A stretch of 14,492 bases of DNA from Candidatus Omnitrophota bacterium (GTDB lineage Bacteria > Omnitrophota > Gorgyraeia > B26-G9), in the NCBI GenBank assembly GCA_016213925.1, contig JACQZH010000054.1, forward strand, positions 1 to 14,492, given 5' to 3'. The notes beneath the pieces are model-generated. The model was given only the letters and a program-made list of their open reading frames with translations, did not search any database and was not told the DNA's origin. Shown piece by piece: positions 1,181 to 12,564 of this stretch; position 1 is the first letter of the stretch; every line of letters begins with the position of its first letter. The translations under genes and the position numbers were made by a program.

Positions 1181-1242
1181 GCTTACGGACTATAGCTTCT
1201 CCTGAATGAATCAGCCAATTTTTTTATAAATTAGGTATTTGA

Positions 1243-2514
1243 TTATTTAGTACCCTTATCTAAATTTAAGATGTTTTTAAGTTTTTCTAAATCCAACCCG
1301 CTCTCTTGAATAAACTGCTGGATATTAGCCCCTCCTTCAGCATCAAGATTGAGCCCGAAAAATTTCTGCGCGTTTGTTCCGCTCATAATCCATTTCACAT
1401 CCGCTTTCTGGATCGCCTGGGCCAGCGCATTAAATTTCGCGATCATTATATCTTTTTGGATATCAAGAACCTTTACATTAATTGCTACATCATTAAACTC
1501 TTTCAATGCCTCGGCCAATTTCAAAGTACCTGCCGCTTCCGCTTCTTTCTTAATCTGTATAATATTTGCCTCGGCCTTACCTACATTTTGTATCTGGTTA
1601 GCCTGGCCTTCAGCTTCGATGGTATATTTTAACTTCTGCCCCATGGCAAGTTGTTCCATTTTTTGTTTTTCAATTTCAGCCTGGCCCACTTCCAGCTTTC
1701 TTATCGCTTCAATTTTCTGGATATTCGCCTCTGCTTCTTTGTTAGCGATTTCCTGATTTTTGAATTGATCAGCCATGCCTATCTGCCTATCTTTTTCTAT
1801 CTGCCTTTTGCGGTAAGTCTCTTCCGCTTCAGCTTTAATAAGCTCCGCTTCTTTGGTGGTAGTAGCAACTCTTATCTCCGCGTCCCGCCTGATTTCCGCC
1901 GCTATTTTTCTTTCAATATCAGCGATAATTGTACTTCCCGCCGCGTCCTTAATATCCTTTAATTCCAAATCAACAAGCTCAATGCCCCACTTTGGAAAAA
2001 CAACCTCAACTTCCTTGGTAATTGCCTGGTCTAATAACGACCTGTTCATATATATATCCAGAATAGTTTGCTTAGTCGTAACTGTCCTTCCAACGCTTTC
2101 CATAATCGCCCGCAAATCCTCGGAAAGTTTAACAAAATCAAAACCCAACTCCTTTTCCGTATTTGTAAGGATTAAACGTTCGACCGCCAAATCTATATTA
2201 TTTATATTTATGAAACACATTATATCAGAAACAAATTTAGCCATATTTTTGTCGTTAAGTTTTATATCATTAACCGGTATAGCTAAATTACAAAGCGGTA
2301 ATTTATGCAGTTTAGTTATAAAAGGAACCACCCAATACGCGCTTTTACCTTGACGGGAAGAAAACGTCATCTTCGAATTTTGCAATATACGGATATGCGC
2401 CTCATTCACCGGAACAACCCTGTATAACCCAAGAAGCCCGCCAAGAATATGCCTGCCCAGAGAAATGACAACCAAAACAATAACCCCGATAACCGCAAGT
2501 AATATTGGATTCAT
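1243..2514 (-). CDS. Flotillin / SPFH (band-7) domain protein, FloT/YqiK-like
   Basis: 423 aa. N-terminal TM helix (ILLAVIGVIVLVVISLG), then an SPFH-like core (YRVVPVNEAHIRIL...), then a long Ala/Glu-rich coiled-coil (AEIRRDAEIRVATTTKEAELIKAEAEE...). This architecture is typical of bacterial flotillins; the similarity to B. subtilis FloT/YuaG is recalled from memory. Strong SD AAGGAG sits 5-6 nt upstream of the ATG. Confidence 0.85.
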   Translation of the reverse strand: MNPILLAVIGVIVLVVISLGRHILGGLLGLYRVVPVNEAHIRILQNSKMTFSSRQGKSAYWVVPFITKLHKLPLCNLAIPVNDIKLNDKNMAKFVSDIMCFININNIDLAVERLILTNTEKELGFDFVKLSEDLRAIMESVGRTVTTKQTILDIYMNRSLLDQAITKEVEVVFPKWGIELVDLELKDIKDAAGSTIIADIERKIAAEIRRDAEIRVATTTKEAELIKAEAEETYRKRQIEKDRQIGMADQFKNQEIANKEAEANIQKIEAIRKLEVGQAEIEKQKMEQLAMGQKLKYTIEAEGQANQIQNVGKAEANIIQIKKEAEAAGTLKLAEALKEFNDVAINVKVLDIQKDIMIAKFNALAQAIQKADVKWIMSGTNAQKFFGLNLDAEGGANIQQFIQESGLDLEKLKNILNLDKGTK

Positions 2515-2729: not shown

Positions 2730-3575
2730 TTAGTCCCTGATTAACTTTTCCGTCGTTCCAATCGGAGTAGGGAAATTAAGCACAACAACATAACTGGAAA
2801 TTATAAAAGTAGCAATCGTAACCAGCTGAATAAGCTGAAAAGCCGGGCTGCTAATGTGCCCAAGTTCCAGAGCCAGAATGGCAATAAGCAGAGAAAATTC
2901 GCTTGATTGCCCCAATCTGAATCCTATTTCTCGGGCAAATAACGGTTTTTCTCCTGTGAAAACAAAAAGCTTTTTGAATACCCAGGGTTTTAATATTATA
3001 CATACCAGCGTTAATATTATTGCCGGAACAATTATCTCTTTCATTATCAAAAAATCCAATTTGGCCCCTAAGGAAAAGAAAAACAATACCAGAAAAAAAT
3101 CTCTCAACGGTTTGAGTTTCTCTGAAATAAAAAATGAAATCCGGTTCTGGGCAATAACCACCCCTGCAAAAAAAGCGCCGGTTTCGTAAAATAGCCCCAT
3201 GCTATTGGAAATCCCGGCAATGCCAAAACACCAAGCCAGCCCCAGGATAAACAATGCTTCCTGCAAACGATCCATATAAGTCATTATCCTGAGCAATACA
3301 AACTGCTCTAGCATTACTAAAACTCCGATAAATAAAATAAGCTTAAGCAGCAGCAAGCCAAAGCTTATCACTGCGCCCTGGGGAGAACCCAGGCAACGGA
3401 TAAAAGCCAGTACTGCTATTGCCATTAGATCCTCTAGGATTAAAACTCCAATACAAATCGCTCCCATTTTCTCCTGGTGCAGCCTGGTTGTCGGCAATAA
3501 TTTAATTGTCAATATTGTGCTCGAAAACATCATAGCCAAGCCAATACTTGAATAACAAGGCAAACGCAAAAGCAA
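2730..3575 (-). CDS. CPA2-family monovalent cation:proton antiporter (KefB-like membrane domain), C-terminal portion. Out of frame with the upstream fragment (frameshift).
   Basis: 'SIGLAMMFSSTILTIKLL...ILEDLMAIAVLAF' matches the KefB/KefC core region (GIGLAMSSTA...LFQDLAVIPALAL, recalled). It is polytopic and hydrophobic throughout. The ORF track starts it at a TTG, and the same frame is open upstream of that to a TAG at about 3599. It overlaps the 3502..3870 ORF by 74 nt in another frame. Confidence 0.75.
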   Translation of the reverse strand: MLLRLPCYSSIGLAMMFSSTILTIKLLPTTRLHQEKMGAICIGVLILEDLMAIAVLAFIRCLGSPQGAVISFGLLLLKLILFIGVLVMLEQFVLLRIMTYMDRLQEALFILGLAWCFGIAGISNSMGLFYETGAFFAGVVIAQNRISFFISEKLKPLRDFFLVLFFFSLGAKLDFLIMKEIIVPAIILTLVCIILKPWVFKKLFVFTGEKPLFAREIGFRLGQSSEFSLLIAILALELGHISSPAFQLIQLVTIATFIISSYVVVLNFPTPIGTTEKLIRD

Positions 3576-3870
3576 TAAAAAATGAAGCTGACGAATTGCC
3601 TAGCGTTACTAAACTGGTTTTTTTAAATAATTCCATCAGTTTTTGCGGATGCAAACACAGCCCGGCAAGAAAAAGAAGCAGGGTTATTCCGATGTGAGAA
3701 ATCGCTTCAATAGATCCGGAATTTTTAATCCAGCCTAACCCCCACGGCCCAGCCAAAATGCCGCAGATAATATAAGCAATTATTATTGGCTGCTTGAATA
3801 ATACCATGACGCATGACAAAACCGCGGAGCCTACCAGGATTATCCCTAATTCGAAAATAAATTTTTCCAT
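3502..3870 (-). CDS. CPA2-family cation:proton antiporter, N-terminal portion (fragment or pseudogene partner of 2730..3575)
   Basis: 'IICGILAGPWGLGWIKNSGSIEAISHIGITLLLFLAGLCLHP' matches the KefB N-terminal signature (LLAGIAIGPWGLGFI...LGVVFLMFIIGLEL, recalled). It ends at a stop inside the next fragment. An A6 homopolymer (plus strand 3577-3582) lies in the region where the frames must switch. It starts 9 nt after the thiM stop, so it is probably co-transcribed with thiM. Confidence 0.7.
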   Translation of the reverse strand: MEKFIFELGIILVGSAVLSCVMVLFKQPIIIAYIICGILAGPWGLGWIKNSGSIEAISHIGITLLLFLAGLCLHPQKLMELFKKTSLVTLGNSSASFFIAFAFALLFKYWLGYDVFEHNIDN

Positions 3871-4827: not shown

Positions 4828-6012
4828 CTATAGGTAATTGGGGTTAGGGGGGATAGGAGTATCGATTCTTTTTTCTAGGACTACGGTATTCTTTCCTTCT
4901 CTCTTGGCTTGAAGCAGGGCGTTATCAGCAGCCCTAATCAATCCCTTAAGGTCTTTCGCATTATGCGGAAAAGCTGCTATTCCTGCGCTAAATTTTACTG
5001 CAACATCTGTTCCCTCTGCCAAATGCATTGAGGTTATTTTTGTCTTTTCAAAGCTTTCCTTAATTCTTCCCAGGACGACTAAAACATGCTGTACATCTGT
5101 TTCAGGAAGAATTATAATAAACTCATCGCCGCCGTATCTGCCTACGCTGTCAATAGCTCTGAGACTTTTTTTAATAACACCGGCAAAAGCCACCAAAATA
5201 TCATTGCCTGCCTGATGTCCATATTCATCATTCATGCTTTTGAAATCGTCGATATCAATCATAACAACAATAAACTGTTTTTGATGGCGCAGGGAGCGGT
5301 GGATTTCTTTCTCTAAAAGCTCCATTATCAATCTGAAATTTATACAGCCAGTAAGATCATCGTAACTAGCTAAGGTTTTTAATTTCTCTTCCAATCTCTT
5401 ATGCTCAGTGACATCCTCCATCGCAAGTAAGATAAGCTGTGTGTTATTAGACTTCTGATAAATTTTACGCGCATTCAAAAGCATTATTCGTTTGCCGATA
5501 TCAGGAAAAACATGCACTACCTCAAAGCCTTCAAAGCTTGTGGTATTAGGCAAGATATTTTCCAGCAACTCTCGTAATTTCGGAATATCCCATTGGCGGT
5601 TTCCTAAATCAAAGATATGCTGCTTCTCGGTATCTTCGGGTTTTACCTTAAAGCTTTGATAGAAGGAACGGCTGGCCGAAATCACCTTTAAATCTGCATC
5701 TAGGACCAATAACGGTTCACGCACTGTATCGACTATATTTTCGGCATAGATACGGGCATCCTGCGCTTTTTGCTCTGCTTTCTTGCGGTGTTCAATTTCT
5801 TGATGAAGCTGCTTAATAACCATTCTTTCCGCGAAAGTGCGGATTTCTACCTGACTATGTAGTTTTTGGGGAAATTTTTTTAATTCTGCCTGACTATGTT
5901 TGAGTTTGGATTTTAAATTTACTAACTCTGCTATCTGCTTCTGCCAAAACTTTATTCCCTCAAAAAACTTTTTCCCTTTGAGGAATTCCTTATCTTTTTT
6001 CTTATCTTGCAT
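4828..6012 (-). CDS. PAS-GGDEF diguanylate cyclase (cytoplasmic, N-terminal coiled-coil)
   Basis: 394 aa. Canonical GGDEF active site (RYGGDEFIIIL). An RxxD I-site (RAID) lies 5 residues upstream of GGDEF, as in PleD-type cyclases. A PAS-like segment precedes it (IVDTVREPLLVLDADLKVISASRSFYQSF). No TM segment. The N-terminal about 90 aa is K/E/Q-rich and coiled-coil-like. Confidence 0.88.
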   Translation of the reverse strand: MQDKKKDKEFLKGKKFFEGIKFWQKQIAELVNLKSKLKHSQAELKKFPQKLHSQVEIRTFAERMVIKQLHQEIEHRKKAEQKAQDARIYAENIVDTVREPLLVLDADLKVISASRSFYQSFKVKPEDTEKQHIFDLGNRQWDIPKLRELLENILPNTTSFEGFEVVHVFPDIGKRIMLLNARKIYQKSNNTQLILLAMEDVTEHKRLEEKLKTLASYDDLTGCINFRLIMELLEKEIHRSLRHQKQFIVVMIDIDDFKSMNDEYGHQAGNDILVAFAGVIKKSLRAIDSVGRYGGDEFIIILPETDVQHVLVVLGRIKESFEKTKITSMHLAEGTDVAVKFSAGIAAFPHNAKDLKGLIRAADNALLQAKREGKNTVVLEKRIDTPIPPNPNYL

Positions 6013-6269: not shown

Positions 6270-6331
6270 ATTTTTGCTTCGTCCCTCGGTCTTCTATATT
6301 GACTGGGCAATAGCATCTATAGTCTCGATAT
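6270..6331. repeat. Third copy or variant of the mosaic repeat, spanning the giant-gene stop codon
   Basis: It contains cttcgtccctcgg (6277-6289), identical to 14308-14320 but with one TTCGTCC unit instead of two. It also contains ggcaatagcatctatagtctcgat (6306-6330), which resembles ccaatagctatc plus the ctatagtct and tagtcgatgg units of the 10945-11014 tract. The 3' part lies inside the last 12 codons of the giant ORF. Confidence 0.35.
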
Positions 6332-9300
6332 CCGCGTCCTTACGCACAGAAAACTCGTTTTGTTTGAGTATTTCAATCCGCTTTTTCAGGTTAATTCCAA
6401 AATCAAATATCAAAGCATACATCTGCCTGGCAAAACCGCTTTTTGAGTCAAGAGTCAGCGCTTCTAAGGTTTTCCGGTTACCGATAACCGCAGTTTTTTC
6501 CTTAGCCCTGGTAAGGCTTACTAAAAGCAACGCCGGATTAGCAATGATCGTCTCTTCATCAAACAAAAACTGCCGCGTCCTTCCATTGACAAGAGTTCCG
6601 TTACCGCTCTTTTCATTTTTCTTTTTATAAATGTCAGCTTCGTTACTGCGGACCAAAGAAACCAGAGTAATTTTATTTTCTCCTCCCTGGATTTGCTGGG
6701 ATGTAACAACATTTTCTTTAAGAAATTCAATCTCTTCATGAGTAAACTCCGGATCATACTCAATGAAGGATTTGATCAGCTCTATTTGACTGCGGTATGG
6801 CGTAATTATTGTAATATCCTTTACCGTATACGGATTACCATCCTTATTTTTCTTGGTCAAAAATTCCTTTATTTTTCCAAGGATCCAAAGTGCTTCCCCT
6901 GTATTTGAATAACTGCCGGTAACCGGATCCTGTTTTTCAAAAGCCGTATCTTTCCATAAAGAAGTATCGGCTATTTCTAAAGTGTCTTCTTCAAAGGGAT
7001 CATTTTTTTCTTTACTTAAACTTTCAAGCTTAAAATATCCCGCATACCATTTTTGGACCAATTCCACGATTATCCAATGATTACGAAAATTTTTAATTAT
7101 GCTCATTTGAGCATATAATGGGTTATTGATCAGCTGTTCAAAGATGCTCTTTTCGTAACGCGCGATACTGCTTCTCAAATATTTGCCCCCTTCCTGCCTG
7201 AACTTTATCCTTTGGCTGGTGTTAAACTTCGAGATAAGAGAAAAAGGCTTATACTGGATATGGTCTCCGATAAGAAAAAGCGCTTTAGGTTTAAGCAAAT
7301 AAACCGCTGCTATTAATTCCGGGTAATTTATCAGTGCCGCTTCATCGATTACCAAAGTTACGTCTCTTAAATAAACCCGCGACTGCGGGTCATCAAGCAT
7401 GGAGATCAGCCCGTCTAAAGCGCCGCCCATAACTGTTGCCGTTAATATACAGCCGTTTTCATTTGGCTGAATATTAAGCGCGGAAAATCTCCGCTCAAAT
7501 TCTTTTTTCGCTTTTTTCGAATGCCTCGAATAATTTTCCTGGATTTCTTTTTTAAATCTATCCGGCGAGTTCCCGCATCTTAAAACAGGTATGCCCTTAC
7601 TTCCAGTGCGCAAAGTGATCTCGTCGGCAATAACATGCTGGGGAGCGAAAATCAGAACCGGTTTTTTTCTCTCCAGGGCTATTTTTTCAGCAGCGCCGAG
7701 TAAAACTGTTGTCTTTGCCGTGCCTACTCCTCCGTGCAGTAATCCAATACTGTTATTCAGCATAAGATCATTTACTGCTTCCTGACTAAATTCTGCAACA
7801 TTGCTTTTTACCGGTGCATTAAGCCGCAGTATATAATCTAAAACTTCAACTCCTGTTTGTTTGCTTTTTTCAAGTTCCTTCTTTATTTCTTCAAGCGCCT
7901 GCACCTGTATTTTTTCTGACATCGCGTTATACTGCAGGAAAAACCGGGCGGTTCTTAATTTTTCCGGTGTGATCTCAAGAAATCTAATCTTCTGCGTGGC
8001 TGTTCCGGCAGGGACTAAAGTAAGCTTATCACTGCCGATGCCATGAGATATTTTTAACACAAAAGATTCGTCGTTTCCCAAATACATCAAGATCCTGCTG
8101 TAAGCGTCAAACCTTCCGTTTCCATTACTCATTTTAAGAGTAGCCTGAATGCTGATGGGAAATCTTTCAACATTACCGGCTTCTAAAGGCACCAGTTCAT
8201 CCTCTAAACTAATAATTTCCTTAAGCAGCCTAATTTGGCCTTCCAATTCAGCGATCACCTGTCCTGCTTCCAAAAGGTATTTGTTTTTAGCTTCAAAAAC
8301 TTCCCTTTCAGCTTCTGTCTTATCTTCTCCCGCTCCCACCACTGGCTCATTAGCGCCATTTTCTTGTTTCTGGGAATCACCCGGTAAATTATCTTTATTT
8401 TGTTTTGCTTTAGGCAATGCCGGCTCTTCTCTGACGGCTTCACCTAAACTTGTTACCTGCCTGCGTATCTTAGGATACTCCTTTCCCCTAACGCTGAAAA
8501 TTTTTACCTCAGCACGCAAGTCATTAACAGCTTCAAGCAAAGTCCTGTAAGCTTCAGGGTCTATTTCTTGTTTTCTAGACTCCAGCTGCGAGTACACATT
8601 ATCAACCAATAACCTCTCCAATTTCTGTCCTTTTACTTCCTGATCCTTTCTAAGACGAAACTCAACTCTAACTTTTTCAGGATTGTCATCTTGTGTGTTA
8701 TGCACAATGGGCGAAGCAACCGGTATTGTATTTTCTTTTGGCGCGGCAATAACAGATACTTCCGGTTTTTGAAGCACAACAACTGGGATTTCCTGTTTTT
8801 TGGACAGTTCTTTAACTGAAGGTTTAGATTTTTTCTTTTTGTGAGTTACTGCTTTTTTCTCTGTAGGGGGTTTCCTGGATTTTTCAATCTTTAAGATAAA
8901 CTCAGCGAATTTTTTCTTAAAATCATTTATTATCAGATTCCTGCGGACATCTTTATTCTCGGATAAATCGTCAACCCTGTTAAGTGTTTCTTTTAGCAGT
9001 ACTTTCGGGCTCGGCACTAAGTTCGGCTTGAATTTTTTATGTTTAAATAATTTCTGAAGCGCTATTCTTGCTTTAAACTCATTTCTTGCCAGAATTTTAG
9101 CCAGTGTATATATCTCTTCATCGGTTATCTTTTCCCGGAAATCTTGATTCAAACGCTCATTCAAAACCTGAGTCAACACTATAGTCATAACACGCTGCAC
9201 AGCGAGTTTTCTGGCTGTAAGCCAGCCGAATATTCCCATAGCGCCTAAAACAACCAGTGCCGTTGAACTGCTGACAAGTTTTTTATTTTTCTTTGCCCAG

Positions 9301-10829
9301 TTGGAAAAGTTTTTCGACTCAAAAAACTCTTTAATATCATAGAAGAAGGAAAGCCTCTTTCTATCCTCGCGCTGGATATTATACGCCTGCTCTGCGATCC
9401 GGATTATTTGCTCATAATCCAGCGTAAAGAACTGGCCGGCGATCTGAGCCCTAGGTTCAATATATGACAACGGACTTATTCTAATATCAGGAAATTCAGC
9501 AATATGACGTTCAATATAATCGATCATATTATTAAGAATAGTTATTTTTGCTACTGTTTCTTCAGGTAGGATTTCTGTTGATTCAGGGACGCTTATTAAA
9601 TGCAGCATTTCAATGTCAATGAATTCTTCATCGCAGTAAAGCATAGCATCAAGCCTGGCCTCGACTTTCAATCCTGCGCTTTCACGGGCCTGCAGGTCAT
9701 TGACTCTTGAGCCATTCCATAGCGCTACTCCGCTCTTATCCTCGGCAATTAAACCCTGCTGATACCGGTTCCGGGAGCGCATCCAATTAATAATATCCTG
9801 CTTGGTAAAATAGTGGTTTTTTACTCTGCTTAATATTTTTACCTGGCAGAAAGTCAACGGGGTCAAATGCTCTTTATTGCCTAGCAAAAGATACTTATCC
9901 CACGGTATTTCCTGGGCATTCTTGACAAATTCCCAGCTTGTTTGGTTTAATTGATCAATAAAATCCTGAGCATTTTCTTCGACCCTGGACATGCAGACAG
10001 CCACGTTCCCATGGATCACCTTGCCTATAGCCGGATAAATTTCAAGTGACATAACCTCTTTGTCCTCTGTCTCAACCGGTATTATAAGCAGCTCATCCAT
10101 AGTTACAGATCCGTCTTGTTTATCTAAGCTAAAAGGCACGACATCTTTGACCTGGTAAAGTTCAAAATTCCCTACAATCATCGGAGCAAGCTTTCCTTTT
10201 TTCCAAATCGGTATAAATTCAGAATGTAAGATAACCCCGTATCCGGCCAAATATTCGGGCACCAGCTCAAACATCAGTTTTCTCCAAAGAGCTTCCTGAT
10301 CCTGTGCTATTGCCTCAGGCAATAGAGCCTTAAAATCAGTCCCTGATAATTCAAGAATTTTCTTAACTAAATTATTTTTTAATTCAGTAAAAGCTTCTGT
10401 TTTAGGACGGGCAATAGTTTCTTCATCTTTTCTTACTAGTTTTTTATATTTCAAAATAAAATCAGAAATTGACTTAACCACCTGAACCGCCTGTTCATTT
10501 TGAAAAAAACAATCCTCATCAAACGCCTTGTATTTAATACGCAGTTGAGCAATGCTATTACCCTGTTCCTTTGATTCGGACTTTTTCTCGGCTAAAGCGG
10601 GGATAAATAAGGATAAGAACTCTCTGCGGGATCTTGAAGCTAAATCTTCTCTTTTATCCTGGCTAAAAGAAGTAAATACCTGCCTAATATAGGCATTATC
10701 GATTTGCACAGTAGGGGCAAGAAAACTATCCGCGTTAGAGCAGAGTTTTCCGTTTGCCGCCTGAGCAATATCAAGCACCAGGAAAGCCTGTATCAATAGT
10801 ATTGAAATTAGTTTTAATAATCTATTCAT
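6294..10829 (-). CDS. Giant multidomain protein (1511 aa). Domain order: signal peptide, unknown N-terminal domain of about 490 aa, one TM helix, Lys-rich and coiled-coil linker, then a C-terminal Upf1/DNA2-like superfamily-1 helicase.
   Basis: A continuous 4.5-kb ORF in AT-rich DNA. Residues 1-27 (MNRLLKLISILLIQAFLVLDIAQA|ANG) are signal-peptide-like with an AxA site. The TM helix is about residues 519-541 (ALVVLGAMGIFGWLTA). A K-rich tract runs over residues 655-690. SF1 helicase motifs are present: I LHGGVGTAKTT (1031-1041); II VIDEAA (1160-1165); III FLIGDHIQYKPF (about 1185-1196); V ITPYRSQ (1342-1348); VI LLLVSLTRAKEKTAVIGN (1434-1451). Motif spacing and sequence match the Upf1-like AAA_11/AAA_12 arrangement (recalled consensus GPPGTGKT, DEAxQ, GDxxQLPP, TxxxYQG, VALTRAR). 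No SD precedes the ATG. Confidence 0.8.
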   Translation of the reverse strand: MNRLLKLISILLIQAFLVLDIAQAANGKLCSNADSFLAPTVQIDNAYIRQVFTSFSQDKREDLASRSRREFLSLFIPALAEKKSESKEQGNSIAQLRIKYKAFDEDCFFQNEQAVQVVKSISDFILKYKKLVRKDEETIARPKTEAFTELKNNLVKKILELSGTDFKALLPEAIAQDQEALWRKLMFELVPEYLAGYGVILHSEFIPIWKKGKLAPMIVGNFELYQVKDVVPFSLDKQDGSVTMDELLIIPVETEDKEVMSLEIYPAIGKVIHGNVAVCMSRVEENAQDFIDQLNQTSWEFVKNAQEIPWDKYLLLGNKEHLTPLTFCQVKILSRVKNHYFTKQDIINWMRSRNRYQQGLIAEDKSGVALWNGSRVNDLQARESAGLKVEARLDAMLYCDEEFIDIEMLHLISVPESTEILPEETVAKITILNNMIDYIERHIAEFPDIRISPLSYIEPRAQIAGQFFTLDYEQIIRIAEQAYNIQREDRKRLSFFYDIKEFFESKNFSNWAKKNKKLVSSSTALVVLGAMGIFGWLTARKLAVQRVMTIVLTQVLNERLNQDFREKITDEEIYTLAKILARNEFKARIALQKLFKHKKFKPNLVPSPKVLLKETLNRVDDLSENKDVRRNLIINDFKKKFAEFILKIEKSRKPPTEKKAVTHKKKKSKPSVKELSKKQEIPVVVLQKPEVSVIAAPKENTIPVASPIVHNTQDDNPEKVRVEFRLRKDQEVKGQKLERLLVDNVYSQLESRKQEIDPEAYRTLLEAVNDLRAEVKIFSVRGKEYPKIRRQVTSLGEAVREEPALPKAKQNKDNLPGDSQKQENGANEPVVGAGEDKTEAEREVFEAKNKYLLEAGQVIAELEGQIRLLKEIISLEDELVPLEAGNVERFPISIQATLKMSNGNGRFDAYSRILMYLGNDESFVLKISHGIGSDKLTLVPAGTATQKIRFLEITPEKLRTARFFLQYNAMSEKIQVQALEEIKKELEKSKQTGVEVLDYILRLNAPVKSNVAEFSQEAVNDLMLNNSIGLLHGGVGTAKTTVLLGAAEKIALERKKPVLIFAPQHVIADEITLRTGSKGIPVLRCGNSPDRFKKEIQENYSRHSKKAKKEFERRFSALNIQPNENGCILTATVMGGALDGLISMLDDPQSRVYLRDVTLVIDEAALINYPELIAAVYLLKPKALFLIGDHIQYKPFSLISKFNTSQRIKFRQEGGKYLRSSIARYEKSIFEQLINNPLYAQMSIIKNFRNHWIIVELVQKWYAGYFKLESLSKEKNDPFEEDTLEIADTSLWKDTAFEKQDPVTGSYSNTGEALWILGKIKEFLTKKNKDGNPYTVKDITIITPYRSQIELIKSFIEYDPEFTHEEIEFLKENVVTSQQIQGGENKITLVSLVRSNEADIYKKKNEKSGNGTLVNGRTRQFLFDEETIIANPALLLVSLTRAKEKTAVIGNRKTLEALTLDSKSGFARQMYALIFDFGINLKKRIEILKQNEFSVRKDADIETIDAIAQSI

Positions 10830-10868
10830 AACAGAGGGTAAAGTATACCTGATTTTAATATTATATGC

Positions 10869-10904
10869 AAAAAAAGAGGAGTCTCCTCAGAAACCCCACT
10901 CCTC
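10869..10904 (-). terminator. Rho-independent terminator (minus strand) ending the upstream membrane-protein/esterase operon, about 40 nt before the giant-gene start
   Basis: Minus-strand read: GAGGAGT-ggggtttct-GAGGAG-a-CTCCTC-TTTTTTT. Two alternative stems (7 bp with a 15-nt loop, or an inner 4-6 bp stem) are followed by T7. It lies between the 7-bp-periodic repeat tract and the candidate giant-gene promoter. Confidence 0.5.
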
Positions 10905-11080: not shown

Positions 11081-11872
11081 TTACACTGATATTTGTTTTT
11101 TGGAAACAATCCGGTTTAAAAGAAGTCCCAGCGCAGCAAGCGTCGTAATAATAACATGCGGCCTAACTGCCTTTCCACTGACAAACAAGGGATGTATATT
11201 GTGGCCCGTTCCAGGTAAAAAGAAAAATAAAACGAGAAAAAACAAAACCATGAAACACGCCAGCACATCAAGAAACTTATTAGGCTTAAAAGGCGCAGGC
11301 TCAACTTTATTTTTTATATTTGACGTAATAATACTACGAAAAAAGCGAGCAAAAATTAACGTAAGAGTCAACATAACAAAAAACTGCCAAGCAGTAACCG
11401 GCGGCCTAGCAAGAAGCCTAAAACTGGTGCTAATTAAAACATAGGCTGTAAAAAACCAAAATATGCCCGGCTTAGATAATAGCGGTTTAGACCGGTCAAC
11501 ATCCGGATTAAGCCGATGGCCTATATATAAAGCAAAGACCGTTTGCAGCGTTGTCCACCAAACCAGATTATTTATGAATAAGATCCTAAAGCTTATCCCA
11601 ACGATAACAGGCGGAATAGGATAATAAACGCCTGCAACACTTATCAATTGCCAAAGCAGGCCGAAAAATTGAGCCACAATCCAAACCTGATAATCTTTAA
11701 GTTTAAACCGTCCTATAAAGTCTTCGATAAGGACAAGATAAGTAAAATAATTTAAGAAAACAAGCAAAGATATAAAAGGGAATCTCAAGAAATGATTACA
11801 TCCTCTTAGCGCATACTCCGCCAGAAAAGCAAAACATGAAGCGATAAAAATCACTCTCCAACGCTTGTCCAT
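11081..11872 (-). CDS. Polytopic membrane protein, paralog of the adjacent upstream gene. Family uncertain; weak CPBP/Abi-like 'EYxxRG' motif.
   Basis: Hydrophobic multi-TM protein, paralogous to 11887..12564 (LVLIEDFIGRFKLKDYQ vs SIVEDLIRRFKITNLQ; LFINNLVWWTTLQTV vs LFINVVWWGSLQSV; C-termini KKQISV vs KKQISI). The track ORF extends to 11956 but would then overlap the upstream paralog by 70 nt. The internal ATG at 11872 (MDKRWRVIF...) has an SD-like AAGGGGAAG upstream and lies 14 nt after the upstream gene's stop, so it is the more likely start. Confidence 0.65.
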   Translation of the reverse strand: MDKRWRVIFIASCFAFLAEYALRGCNHFLRFPFISLLVFLNYFTYLVLIEDFIGRFKLKDYQVWIVAQFFGLLWQLISVAGVYYPIPPVIVGISFRILFINNLVWWTTLQTVFALYIGHRLNPDVDRSKPLLSKPGIFWFFTAYVLISTSFRLLARPPVTAWQFFVMLTLTLIFARFFRSIITSNIKNKVEPAPFKPNKFLDVLACFMVLFFLVLFFFLPGTGHNIHPLFVSGKAVRPHVIITTLAALGLLLNRIVSKKQISV

Positions 11873-11886
11873 TTTCTTCCCCTTTT

Positions 11887-12564
11887 TCAAATCGAAATTT
11901 GTTTTTTGTTTTTCAAATAATATAAAAGCATGCCCATGAAAACAACCAGCGTCCAAGCGGCTGAAAGCTTAATTGCCAAAGGACTTCCCAATGAGCCGGA
12001 CACAAGAACTTGCCTTACGGCGACAAAAGTTCCCAAGAACATGAATACACATACACTAAAAAATGAAAGGCAGTCCAAAAGAAAAGATTGCTTAAAATCC
12101 CAGGGTTCTCTCTTATTTTTATTTATGGAATATATTAAATAAATCAGGGCGACTAAAAAAATAATAACGGACATAAAATAGCCATGCGCTGTGCCCTTGA
12201 GCGGAATCTTGCTTTTAAACAACATAAACACCGCAAGCCATACGATATAACCTACGCTTAATATCCATCCTAAAGGCCCCATCGGCTTTTCCGACCAATC
12301 GCGCTTACAGAAGCGATTAGCAAAATAAAAAGTCAATACGCTCTGAAGAGAACCCCACCAGACCACATTTATAAAAAGCATAGAGCCAATATTTATACCA
12401 AAACAAAAAGCCACGAGTATTAACTGCAGATTAGTAATCTTAAACCTTCTGATTAAATCCTCGACAATCGAACAATAGAAAAAATATAAGAAGAAATTAA
12501 AGAAGAAAAATATGCCATGCAAAGTCATGCCCTTTAACCCGCGCATAGAATACTCAAAGAGCAT
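11887..12564 (-). CDS. Polytopic membrane protein, tandem paralog of 11081..11872; family uncertain
   Basis: 225-aa hydrophobic ORF with 5-6 predicted TM segments. It shares conserved blocks with the downstream paralog. No SD before the annotated ATG. A later in-frame Met (MRGLKGMTLHG or MTLHG) cannot be excluded as the start. Confidence 0.65.
   Translation of the reverse strand: MLFEYSMRGLKGMTLHGIFFFFNFFLYFFYCSIVEDLIRRFKITNLQLILVAFCFGINIGSMLFINVVWWGSLQSVLTFYFANRFCKRDWSEKPMGPLGWILSVGYIVWLAVFMLFKSKIPLKGTAHGYFMSVIIFLVALIYLIYSINKNKREPWDFKQSFLLDCLSFFSVCVFMFLGTFVAVRQVLVSGSLGSPLAIKLSAAWTLVVFMGMLLYYLKNKKQISI

Follow-up and report, generated by a model that had tools for sequence, protein, structure and literature searches.

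Related systems and the gene under study

The known Upf1-like helicases of superfamily 1B (SF1B), such as UPF1/NAM7, DNA2, IGHMBP2, SEN1 and ZNFX1, are soluble proteins. The gene considered here lies on the minus strand of a contig of 14,492 nucleotides (nt) from a metagenome-assembled genome (MAG) of Candidatus Omnitrophica (JACQZH010000054.1), the whole of which was analysed and is referred to below as the window, and it encodes a protein of 1511 amino acids (aa) with a core homologous at the sequence level to that of these helicases, motifs Ia, II (DEAA), III (GDHIQ), V (QGGENK) and VI (TRA) being present. The protein departs from the known members in that its helicase stands behind two hydrophobic helices and a peptidase-fold domain, in that the conserved Gly of the Walker A motif is replaced by Ala, and in that a clade-specific pre-helicase domain and a C-terminal tail are found, whereas the CH, nuclease and R3H accessory domains of known members are absent. 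FtsK/SpoIIIE and RNase Y are likewise anchored in the membrane by their N-terminus and carry a nucleic-acid enzyme or motor at the C-terminus, with a long linker of low complexity or coiled structure in between; these are architectural analogues only, without homology to the present protein, FtsK being a hexameric RecA-fold pump of double-stranded DNA and RNase Y a nuclease, and neither has a large ectodomain.

For the peptidase-fold domain, the closest described systems are DPP III (MEROPS M49) and PolE. Characterised DPP III is soluble and has the motif HExxGH, whereas the domain described here is bracketed by hydrophobic helices, matches no Pfam or PDB family by sequence and has the His-Glu-His of the metal site replaced at all three positions, and its relatives in other proteins have HExxH with a different spacing to the downstream Glu. 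PolE (DUF6421), an Fe/pterin oxidase, is DPP III-like and carries the metal motif HE/DxxH-x(21-23)-E (PMC12614342).

The fusion of cytoplasmic enzymes or motors to many transmembrane segments is a documented habit of the giant proteins of Omnitrophota (bioRxiv 10.1101/2023.11.21.568195). The present protein, from the same phylum, shows the same combination of ATPase or enzyme domains with transmembrane and exported modules, and one of its relatives (L006), a giant-type protein of 3068 aa, holds a helicase of the same clade; however, the described giant proteins carry SecA_DEAD (SF2-like) domains and reach 10-85 thousand aa, whereas this one is compact and has an SF1B motor. A search of the literature on membrane-anchored or transmembrane helicases returned nothing relevant and no description of the fusion, in agreement with a preliminary description of the window, made from its letters, in which a transmembrane version was held to be undescribed. 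The helicase family and the DPP III fold are known, but no description appears to exist of their joining by a membrane helix, of the pseudo-peptidase state or of the recurring module.

The protein is a real 1511-residue, unusual, lineage-specific fusion. Its best explanation, to which about an even chance of being correct is given, is that of a membrane-tethered SF1B helicase or translocase, specific to Candidatus Omnitrophota and placed at the inner face of the membrane, which in the long sub-clade to which it belongs would have acquired an exported non-catalytic DPP III-fold binding module together with a detuned P-loop.

Helicase motor and its clade

By its sequence, the C-terminal third of the protein is an Upf1/DNA2-like SF1B helicase. 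The open reading frame (ORF) is unbroken from ATG to stop, as the preliminary description had proposed for a single ORF of 4.5 kb, and its product is annotated at NCBI as 'AAA family ATPase [Candidatus Omnitrophica bacterium]'. The strongest Pfam match is that of AAA_12 over aa 1225-1453 (expect value (E) 1.8e-22, 80.3 bits, cut-off 27), preceded over aa 1016-1194 by AAA_11 (30.1 bits, cut-off 27) and AAA_19 (30.7 bits, cut-off 25.1), together with AAA_30. A single-sequence search of the PDB gave IGHMBP2 and UPF1 as the nearest solved structures, and a search with a profile of the clade gave UPF1, DNA2, NAM7, ZNFX1, IGHMBP2 and SEN1 with E down to 3e-14, UPF1 and DNA2 being matched at about 1e-14. 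These matches fit the position (nt 6450-7832) at which an Upf1-like SF1 helicase had been proposed and, as also stated there, no PLD, HNH or other nuclease is found among the Pfam matches of the protein.

Pattern scans of 185,579 species-representative genomes returned five loci of this helicase clade, all in Candidatus Omnitrophota, and JGI metagenomes contributed three more; the clade was found only in Omnitrophota. A metagenome scan with another alignment (A3) found nothing. Three architectures, referred to as long, short and giant, share the pre-helicase domain and the motor. The long form comprises this protein and its orthologue from Omnitrophota bin S2.42 (MAG GCA_022013205.1, loci L002 and L001), and probably also L003, which is cut at a contig end. 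The short forms, of 1062-1074 aa (L005/L009, L007 and L008), consist of the first hydrophobic helix, a linker and the motor with a canonical P-loop, without the N-terminal domain or the second helix, and the region after the first helix is extremely rich in Lys and Arg. In the giant form, L006, the part before the helicase comprises a signal peptide, a region similar to ChaN/Tiki and a set of five hydrophobic helices, and the part behind it a twin-arginine helix, another large region and additional helices; the N-terminal regions of L006 and of P0002, a protein introduced below, are homologous. These differing architectures indicate that helicase and exported modules are shuffled within these organisms, which fits the published description of Omnitrophota giant proteins (bioRxiv 10.1101/2023.11.21.568195).

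The full set of motifs I, II, III, V and VI listed in the preliminary description can be located, with the reservation that motif I is not canonical: the pattern GxxxxGK[ST] is not matched, since Lys and Thr are kept but Ala1038 replaces Gly, and motifs II (DE), III (GDxxQ), V and VI (Arg) are all present. In an alignment of six clade members, the three proteins of the long-form sub-clade have Ala, Ile and Ala at the P-loop Gly position (GGFGTIKT and GGFGNAKT in the two relatives; two of the three contigs are cut upstream of the helicase region), and the short and giant forms have Gly (GPFGTGKT, GFFGTGKT), so that the change is found only in the ectodomain-bearing sub-clade. Motifs II, III and VI keep their core residues unchanged in all six members, and so does motif V apart from one E-to-Q change in P0005, a fragment of the S2.42 orthologue. 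By analogy with Ras G15A-type mutants, Ala1038 should weaken nucleotide binding, and the limitation of the change to the sub-clade with the ectodomain suggests weakened or regulated nucleotide binding there.

The tail that follows the motor is conserved in the clade alignments and might be a docking or degradation signal. The C-termini of the stand-alone clade members (L005, L007, L008, L003 and L001) read ...[QS][SC]AI-COOH, and that of the present protein ...AIAQSI (6297-6308).

N-terminal domain

No model of Pfam, NCBIfam, PADLOC or PHROGs matched aa 1-975, and neither Pfam nor the PDB gave a match in profile searches with the N-terminal domain (N-domain). When aa 1-1000 were searched exhaustively with phmmer against 1.84 billion cluster representatives, only five other proteins were returned, two of which (P0003 and P0005) are pieces, on two contigs, of the S2.42 orthologue. 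The other three, P0002 (1518 aa, from a JGI metagenome), P0004 (4929 aa, from a MAG labelled Bacteroidales) and P0006 (1771 aa), match aa 78-499 at about 20% identity. A word-indexed search with the full protein as query returned only the protein itself, and those with two N-domain alignments (A2 and A6) missed even the members of the alignments, so that they are uninformative.

The five copies of the module defined by these matches, for none of which a Pfam or PDB sequence match was found, are collinear up to and including the helix that follows (A..G..FG..W..R), and each of the five has a hydrophobic segment before it and a hydrophobic helix rich in Gly and Ala behind it. HExxH is found in P0002, P0004 and P0006 (HEANH, HEASH and HEMTH, respectively), with a conserved Glu 29-35 residues further on. 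The aligned position reads QQGLI in the present protein and QYAVH in the orthologue, and only the column of the downstream Glu390 is retained here, which indicates that the helicase-linked copies have lost their metal and catalytic residues; from this alignment, the N-domain of this protein is predicted to be catalytically dead. Neither the M49 zinc motif HExxGH (or HExxH) with a downstream Glu nor a match to the Peptidase M49 family model was found. The N-terminal part shares 24% identity with the orthologue, versus 47% for the motor, and is therefore evolving much faster.

A model of the N-domain built from a four-sequence alignment shows the two-lobe DPP III fold. Helix 257-277 of the model holds the HExxH-equivalent site, and the conserved Glu390 stands on the long helix that comes next, a placement on successive helices that is the gluzincin arrangement; a single-sequence AF2 model of aa 1-549 reached a predicted local distance difference test (pLDDT) value of 37. 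From the alignment-based model it is concluded that the N-domain is a predicted divergent DPP III-like gluzincin-fold module, which supersedes the earlier view of a domain with no motif that could be placed. The module as a whole, made of a hydrophobic or twin-arginine segment, a DPP III-like HExxH domain and a Gly/Ala-rich helix, is a previously unannotated unit shuffled among large membrane proteins of uncultured bacteria.

Several further observations concern the module and its carriers. Twin-arginine-like motifs stand far inside giant proteins, just before exported-looking modules, in P0004 (TRRGLFRTV, aa ~3432-3450), P0006 (SRRGFFRRV, aa ~73-95) and L006 (TRRTFIKIL, aa ~2012-2035); Tat signals normally act at the N-terminus. 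The C-terminal module of L006 was considered as a homologue of the N-domain and rejected, as it gave no score with a hidden Markov model from the five-copy alignment. In the orthologue, an in-frame TAA lies within the N-domain at L002 1340-1342 (GCA_022013205.1, JAKLQT010000254.1), at the equivalent of Ile333 ('QVKIL'), and homology runs on in the same frame on both sides of it; a recently formed pseudogene, a variant within the population and a sequencing error are all conceivable.

Hydrophobic segments and predicted topology

The N-terminal segment has the features of a signal peptide, with a basic n-region (R3 and K6), an h-region from L7 to L19 interrupted by Q14, and A22-Q-A24, and its Kyte-Doolittle (KD) value over aa 4-22 is 2.29. 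The n-region Arg, the hydrophobic segment and the AQA site had been recognised in the preliminary description, but the 16-residue hydrophobic core reported there is in fact broken by Gln14 and Asp20. A Gln at position 14 (Glu in the orthologue) is conserved in all five relatives, which is unusual in cleaved signal peptides, and together with the conserved [FN]L[AS]P motif that follows (Table 1) it speaks for a helix with a function of its own and not for a signal peptide that is discarded; the segment looks like a Sec signal or signal anchor. A type IV pilin-like leader and a lipobox were rejected on inspection of the N-terminus, the former because a Gly-Phe cleavage motif followed by Glu at +5 is missing and the latter because a conserved Cys is lacking. 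Over roughly the first 45 residues the protein sequence is conserved in four homologues, which come from further MAGs or metagenome contigs, and this conservation supports M1 as the true start.

The second helix is present where it had been placed (aa 519-541), but its description as strongly hydrophobic was an overstatement, as its value is 1.66 over aa 519-537 and its crude Hessa-scale sum +2.2. The flank after it is strongly basic in four of the five module copies, including this one, and the flank before it is neutral or acidic in most copies. It is followed by a linker which, as earlier reported, is rich in Lys (18.7% over aa 546-700). A large non-helicase domain is thus confirmed to precede the helicase between two hydrophobic helices. 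Given these bracketing helices, the twin-arginine or basic residues before helix 1, the neutral or acidic flank before helix 2 and the basic flank after it, the best-supported topology would place the domain of aa ~25-518 outside the cytoplasm. The comparison of module copies thus favours the exported position of the domain suggested in the preliminary description; the simple type I topology that went with it is weakened by the short forms, which lack helix 2.

An alternative is that the protein is soluble or peripheral in the cytoplasm, the hydrophobic stretches not spanning the membrane and the DPP III-like domain acting as a cytoplasmic accessory or regulatory domain. A buried segment of the helicase core has a KD value of 1.65, equal to that of helix 2, a helicase-core segment of L003 has a similar Hessa sum, the single hydrophobic segment of the short forms is awkward for any transmembrane model, and both characterised DPP III and PolE are cytoplasmic enzymes. 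West-Roberts et al. moreover describe transmembrane predictions for Omnitrophota proteins as unreliable (bioRxiv 10.1101/2023.11.21.568195). Nevertheless, a cytoplasmic location is considered unlikely in view of the hydrophobicity, basic n-region and AxA site of the N-terminal segment, the hydrophobic segments that bracket the module in 5/5 homologues, the twin-arginine-like motifs preceding it in P0004 and P0006, and the conserved small-residue spacing and basic C-flank of helix 2.

The short forms raise a further question, since in the same orientation they would hold an ATP-dependent motor outside the cell; either the Lys/Arg-rich linker reverses the orientation when it stands immediately behind helix 1, or helix 1 serves as something other than a simple anchor. 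They could also be taken to mean that a true Sec signal is present clade-wide and that the short forms are exported whole, for example as effectors into prey or host, the helicase of the long form being kept inside by helix 2. The N-terminus of all stand-alone clade members does resemble a signal peptide and has a basic N-flank, no other hydrophobic helix occurs in the short forms, and Omnitrophota have been proposed to be predators or symbionts with secretion-associated giant proteins (bioRxiv 10.1101/2023.11.21.568195). Such an exported helicase is nonetheless most improbable, as an ATP-dependent motor outside the cell would have nothing to power it, the conservation of the mid-helix Gln/Glu and of the motif behind it exceeds what is usual in cleaved signal peptides, the extreme Lys/Arg richness of the post-helix region of the short forms disfavours translocation, and the short forms stand in housekeeping synteny.

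Proposed arrangement and function

In the membrane-tethered arrangement, hydrophobic helix 1 would be followed by a dead DPP III-fold domain of ~415 aa, the Gly/Ala-rich helix 2, a Lys-rich linker of ~320 aa, the pre-helicase domain and the SF1B motor with its tail. The short N-terminus would lie inside, the pseudo-peptidase domain in the periplasm, and helix 2 would recross the membrane and leave linker and helicase in the cytoplasm, where RNA or single-stranded DNA close to the inner membrane face may be the substrate of the motor. By analogy with FtsK or RNase Y, the long linker could give the motor reach, and the ectodomain would be a non-catalytic binding or anchoring module, not an enzyme. 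Ligand- or partner-dependent control of the motor is possible. The analysis establishes the ORF, the gene contexts, the helicase family with its taxonomic restriction, the homology and predicted fold of the module and the loss of HExxH, whereas the topology, the substrate and the coupling of ectodomain to motor are inferred. A stronger version of such coupling, in line with the sensor-helicase idea of the preliminary description, in which the protein would be a one-polypeptide transmembrane transducer whose periplasmic pseudo-DPP III binds a peptide or envelope ligand, possibly prey- or host-derived, and by way of helix and linker switches an Upf1-like motor made dependent on this input by its detuned P-loop (Gly to Ala or Ile), so that a cue from outside leads to RNA or DNA remodelling, is regarded as rather improbable.

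Several points weigh against the membrane-tethered translocase with a binding ectodomain, a functional statement that is itself drawn by analogy. The long architecture is found in only two or three sequences, all the sequences come from MAGs or metagenomes, and the sole full long-form orthologue carries the in-frame TAA inside its N-domain; these few sequences, and a topology predicted from sequence, limit the weight that the case can bear. The fold assignment rests on a model from only four aligned sequences, a Foldseek search of the N-domain model against the PDB gave no significant match (nor did one against BFVD), and characterised DPP III enzymes are mostly cytosolic. Helix 2 is of borderline hydrophobicity, and its N-flank in this protein is basic (KKNKK), contrary to the positive-inside rule, and the short forms keep helix 1 with its basic N-flank in the absence of helix 2.

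If the topology is true, this would be, as far as found, the first SF1B (Upf1-like) helicase linked through the membrane to an exported domain, and the first DPP III-fold domain reused as a non-catalytic ectodomain. The gene also offers a concrete and tractable case of the poorly understood fusion of cytoplasmic motors to membrane and exported parts in Omnitrophota.

Table 1. Features of the helicase gene, its product and its upstream region; nucleotide positions are those of the window
Feature	Residues (aa)	Position (nt)	Strand	Remarks
Complete ORF	1-1511	6294..10829	-	Uninterrupted, ATG start, 1511 aa + stop
N-terminal hydrophobic helix 1, MNRLLKLISILLIQAFLVLDIAQA	1-24	10758..10829	-	Putative signal peptide or signal anchor; KD 2.29; conserved in orthologue and three short forms
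Motif [FN]-L-[AS]-P-x-x-x-[IL]-[DN] (FLAPTVQIDN)	36-45	10695..10724	-	After helix 1; L37 and P39 invariant
Predicted DPP III-like (gluzincin-fold) domain	87-500	9330..10571	-	Without metal site; putative pseudo-peptidase module
QQGLI	357-361	9747..9761	-	Aligned to HExxH of three homologues; all three metal/catalytic residues replaced
Helix 2, STALVVLGAMGIFGWLTA	519-541	9207..9275	-	Putative transmembrane helix of module; A530, G532 and W536 invariant in five module homologues
Lys-rich linker	542-860	8250..9206	-	14% K, 11% E; few conserved helices common to short forms
Clade-specific pre-helicase domain (GQIRLL ... VERFP ... TGVEVLDY)	861-1015	7785..8249	-	Conserved in 6/6 clade members; P0005 match
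Upf1/DNA2-like SF1B helicase core	1016-1453	6471..7784	-	Pfam AAA_11, AAA_12, AAA_19; PDB matches
Walker A / motif I, GGVGTAKT	1033-1040	7710..7733	-	Ala1038 where the canonical Gly stands
Motif Ia, FAPQH			-	In helicase core
Motif II, VIDEAA	1160-1165		-	In helicase core
Motif III, GDHIQ	1188-1192		-	In helicase core
Motif V, QGGENK	1381-1386		-	In helicase core
Motif VI, VSLTRAK	1437-1443		-	In helicase core
C-terminal extension, conserved tail	1454-1511	6297..6470	-	Clade alignments
Sigma-70-like promoter, TTTGCA-18-TATACT or TTGCAT-17-TATACT		10842..10871	-	Consensus match only
Intrinsic-terminator-like hairpin, GGGGTTTCTGAGGAGACTCC / GAGGAGACTCCTC, then TTTTTTT		10876..10897	-	Ends upstream gene

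Genomic context and the question of a defence role

In the preliminary description the protein was offered as a candidate defence protein, and a single-protein anti-phage sensor-helicase, in which the periplasmic domain would sense phage attack and activate the cytoplasmic motor against phage nucleic acid, has some observations on its side. Upf1-like helicases are frequent in bacterial defence systems, and the best PADLOC match of the protein is MkoA, the Mokosh helicase (PDLC03920, E 2.8e-21), with which the Upf1-like core is shared, accompanied by weak matches to PbeA and by an NCBIfam match to the PLuB helicase-like model, far under its cut-off. The neighbourhoods also differ between the two long-form genomes with usable flanks: the gene here is surrounded in the window by genes for a flotillin-like SPFH protein, a split Na+/H+ exchanger, ThiM, a PAS-GGDEF cyclase, two paralogous membrane proteins, an esterase and a DUF3592 protein, and the genes downstream of the S2.42 orthologue are NMT1-like, VWA, OmpA and ABC transporter genes.

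The matches to MkoA and PbeA are, however, limited to the generic helicase core, that of MkoA covering only positions 677-1082 of the 1112 of its profile. An adjacent MkoB (a PLD nuclease), a fused PLD domain and an island context are all absent here, the protein being searched with Pfam and the neighbours with PADLOC and Pfam, and no window neighbour matches a defence model beyond a generic GGDEF/Cas10-palm similarity. By tblastn no phage relatives were found, and only two weak plasmid matches, to the helicase core; the clade is confined to one phylum, the guanine-cytosine (GC) content of the gene is not anomalous relative to its flanks, and the surroundings show no enrichment of defence genes or mobile elements. 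Three or four contigs carry the short forms in a conserved order of miaB-like radical SAM, SPOR/TPR, miaA and helicase, followed on the opposite strand by ksgA, pdxA, surA and mfd. Housekeeping synteny of this kind, which had been named beforehand as an observation that would speak against a defence role, thus holds for the family, through its short forms, but does not extend to the long form. The gene belongs to no recognisable defence system and adds no new one, and the anti-phage sensor-helicase is judged very unlikely. In one short-form contig (L005 11941-14778), HTH_8/Fis-type regulator and HATPase_c histidine-kinase-like genes lie between the helicase gene and ksgA, the rest of the synteny with L007 and L008 being kept.

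The upstream gene ends in a terminator-like hairpin, and a promoter-like sequence stands close to the ATG of the helicase gene (Table 1), its -10 element finishing 12 nt 5' of the ATG; inspection of the upstream region found no Shine-Dalgarno sequence. From these sequence signals taken together, the helicase gene looks like a separate, near-leaderless transcription unit. Rfam and tRNA scans of the window gave no matches.

Other observations on the neighbouring genes can be added. Every sizeable gene of the window is on the minus strand. A PAS-GGDEF diguanylate cyclase gene (4828-6012, -) lies directly downstream of the helicase gene, and the gene for L006 is directly preceded by those of an HTH_17-PilZ protein and an IS200-like Y1 transposase ORF (L006 4898-6009); the recurrence of cyclic di-GMP genes near clade members may be coincidental. 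The Na+/H+ exchanger gene (2730-3870, -) is spread over two overlapping ORFs, 3502-3870 and 2730-3575, which correspond to the consecutive positions 10-104 and 109-367 of Pfam Na_H_Exchanger, respectively; this is a frameshift, from either a pseudogene or an assembly error. A partial gene (1-936, -) runs off the left contig end with 312 aa visible and a signal-peptide-like start (MKSNHLFFLKWVIITGVMCTIFF...), and accounts for the lack of a complete listed ORF in the first 1.2 kb. The two multi-helix membrane proteins encoded at 11081-12564 (-), for which no Pfam family was found, are adjacent, slightly overlapping paralogues with 29% identity, and both end in KKQIS[VI].

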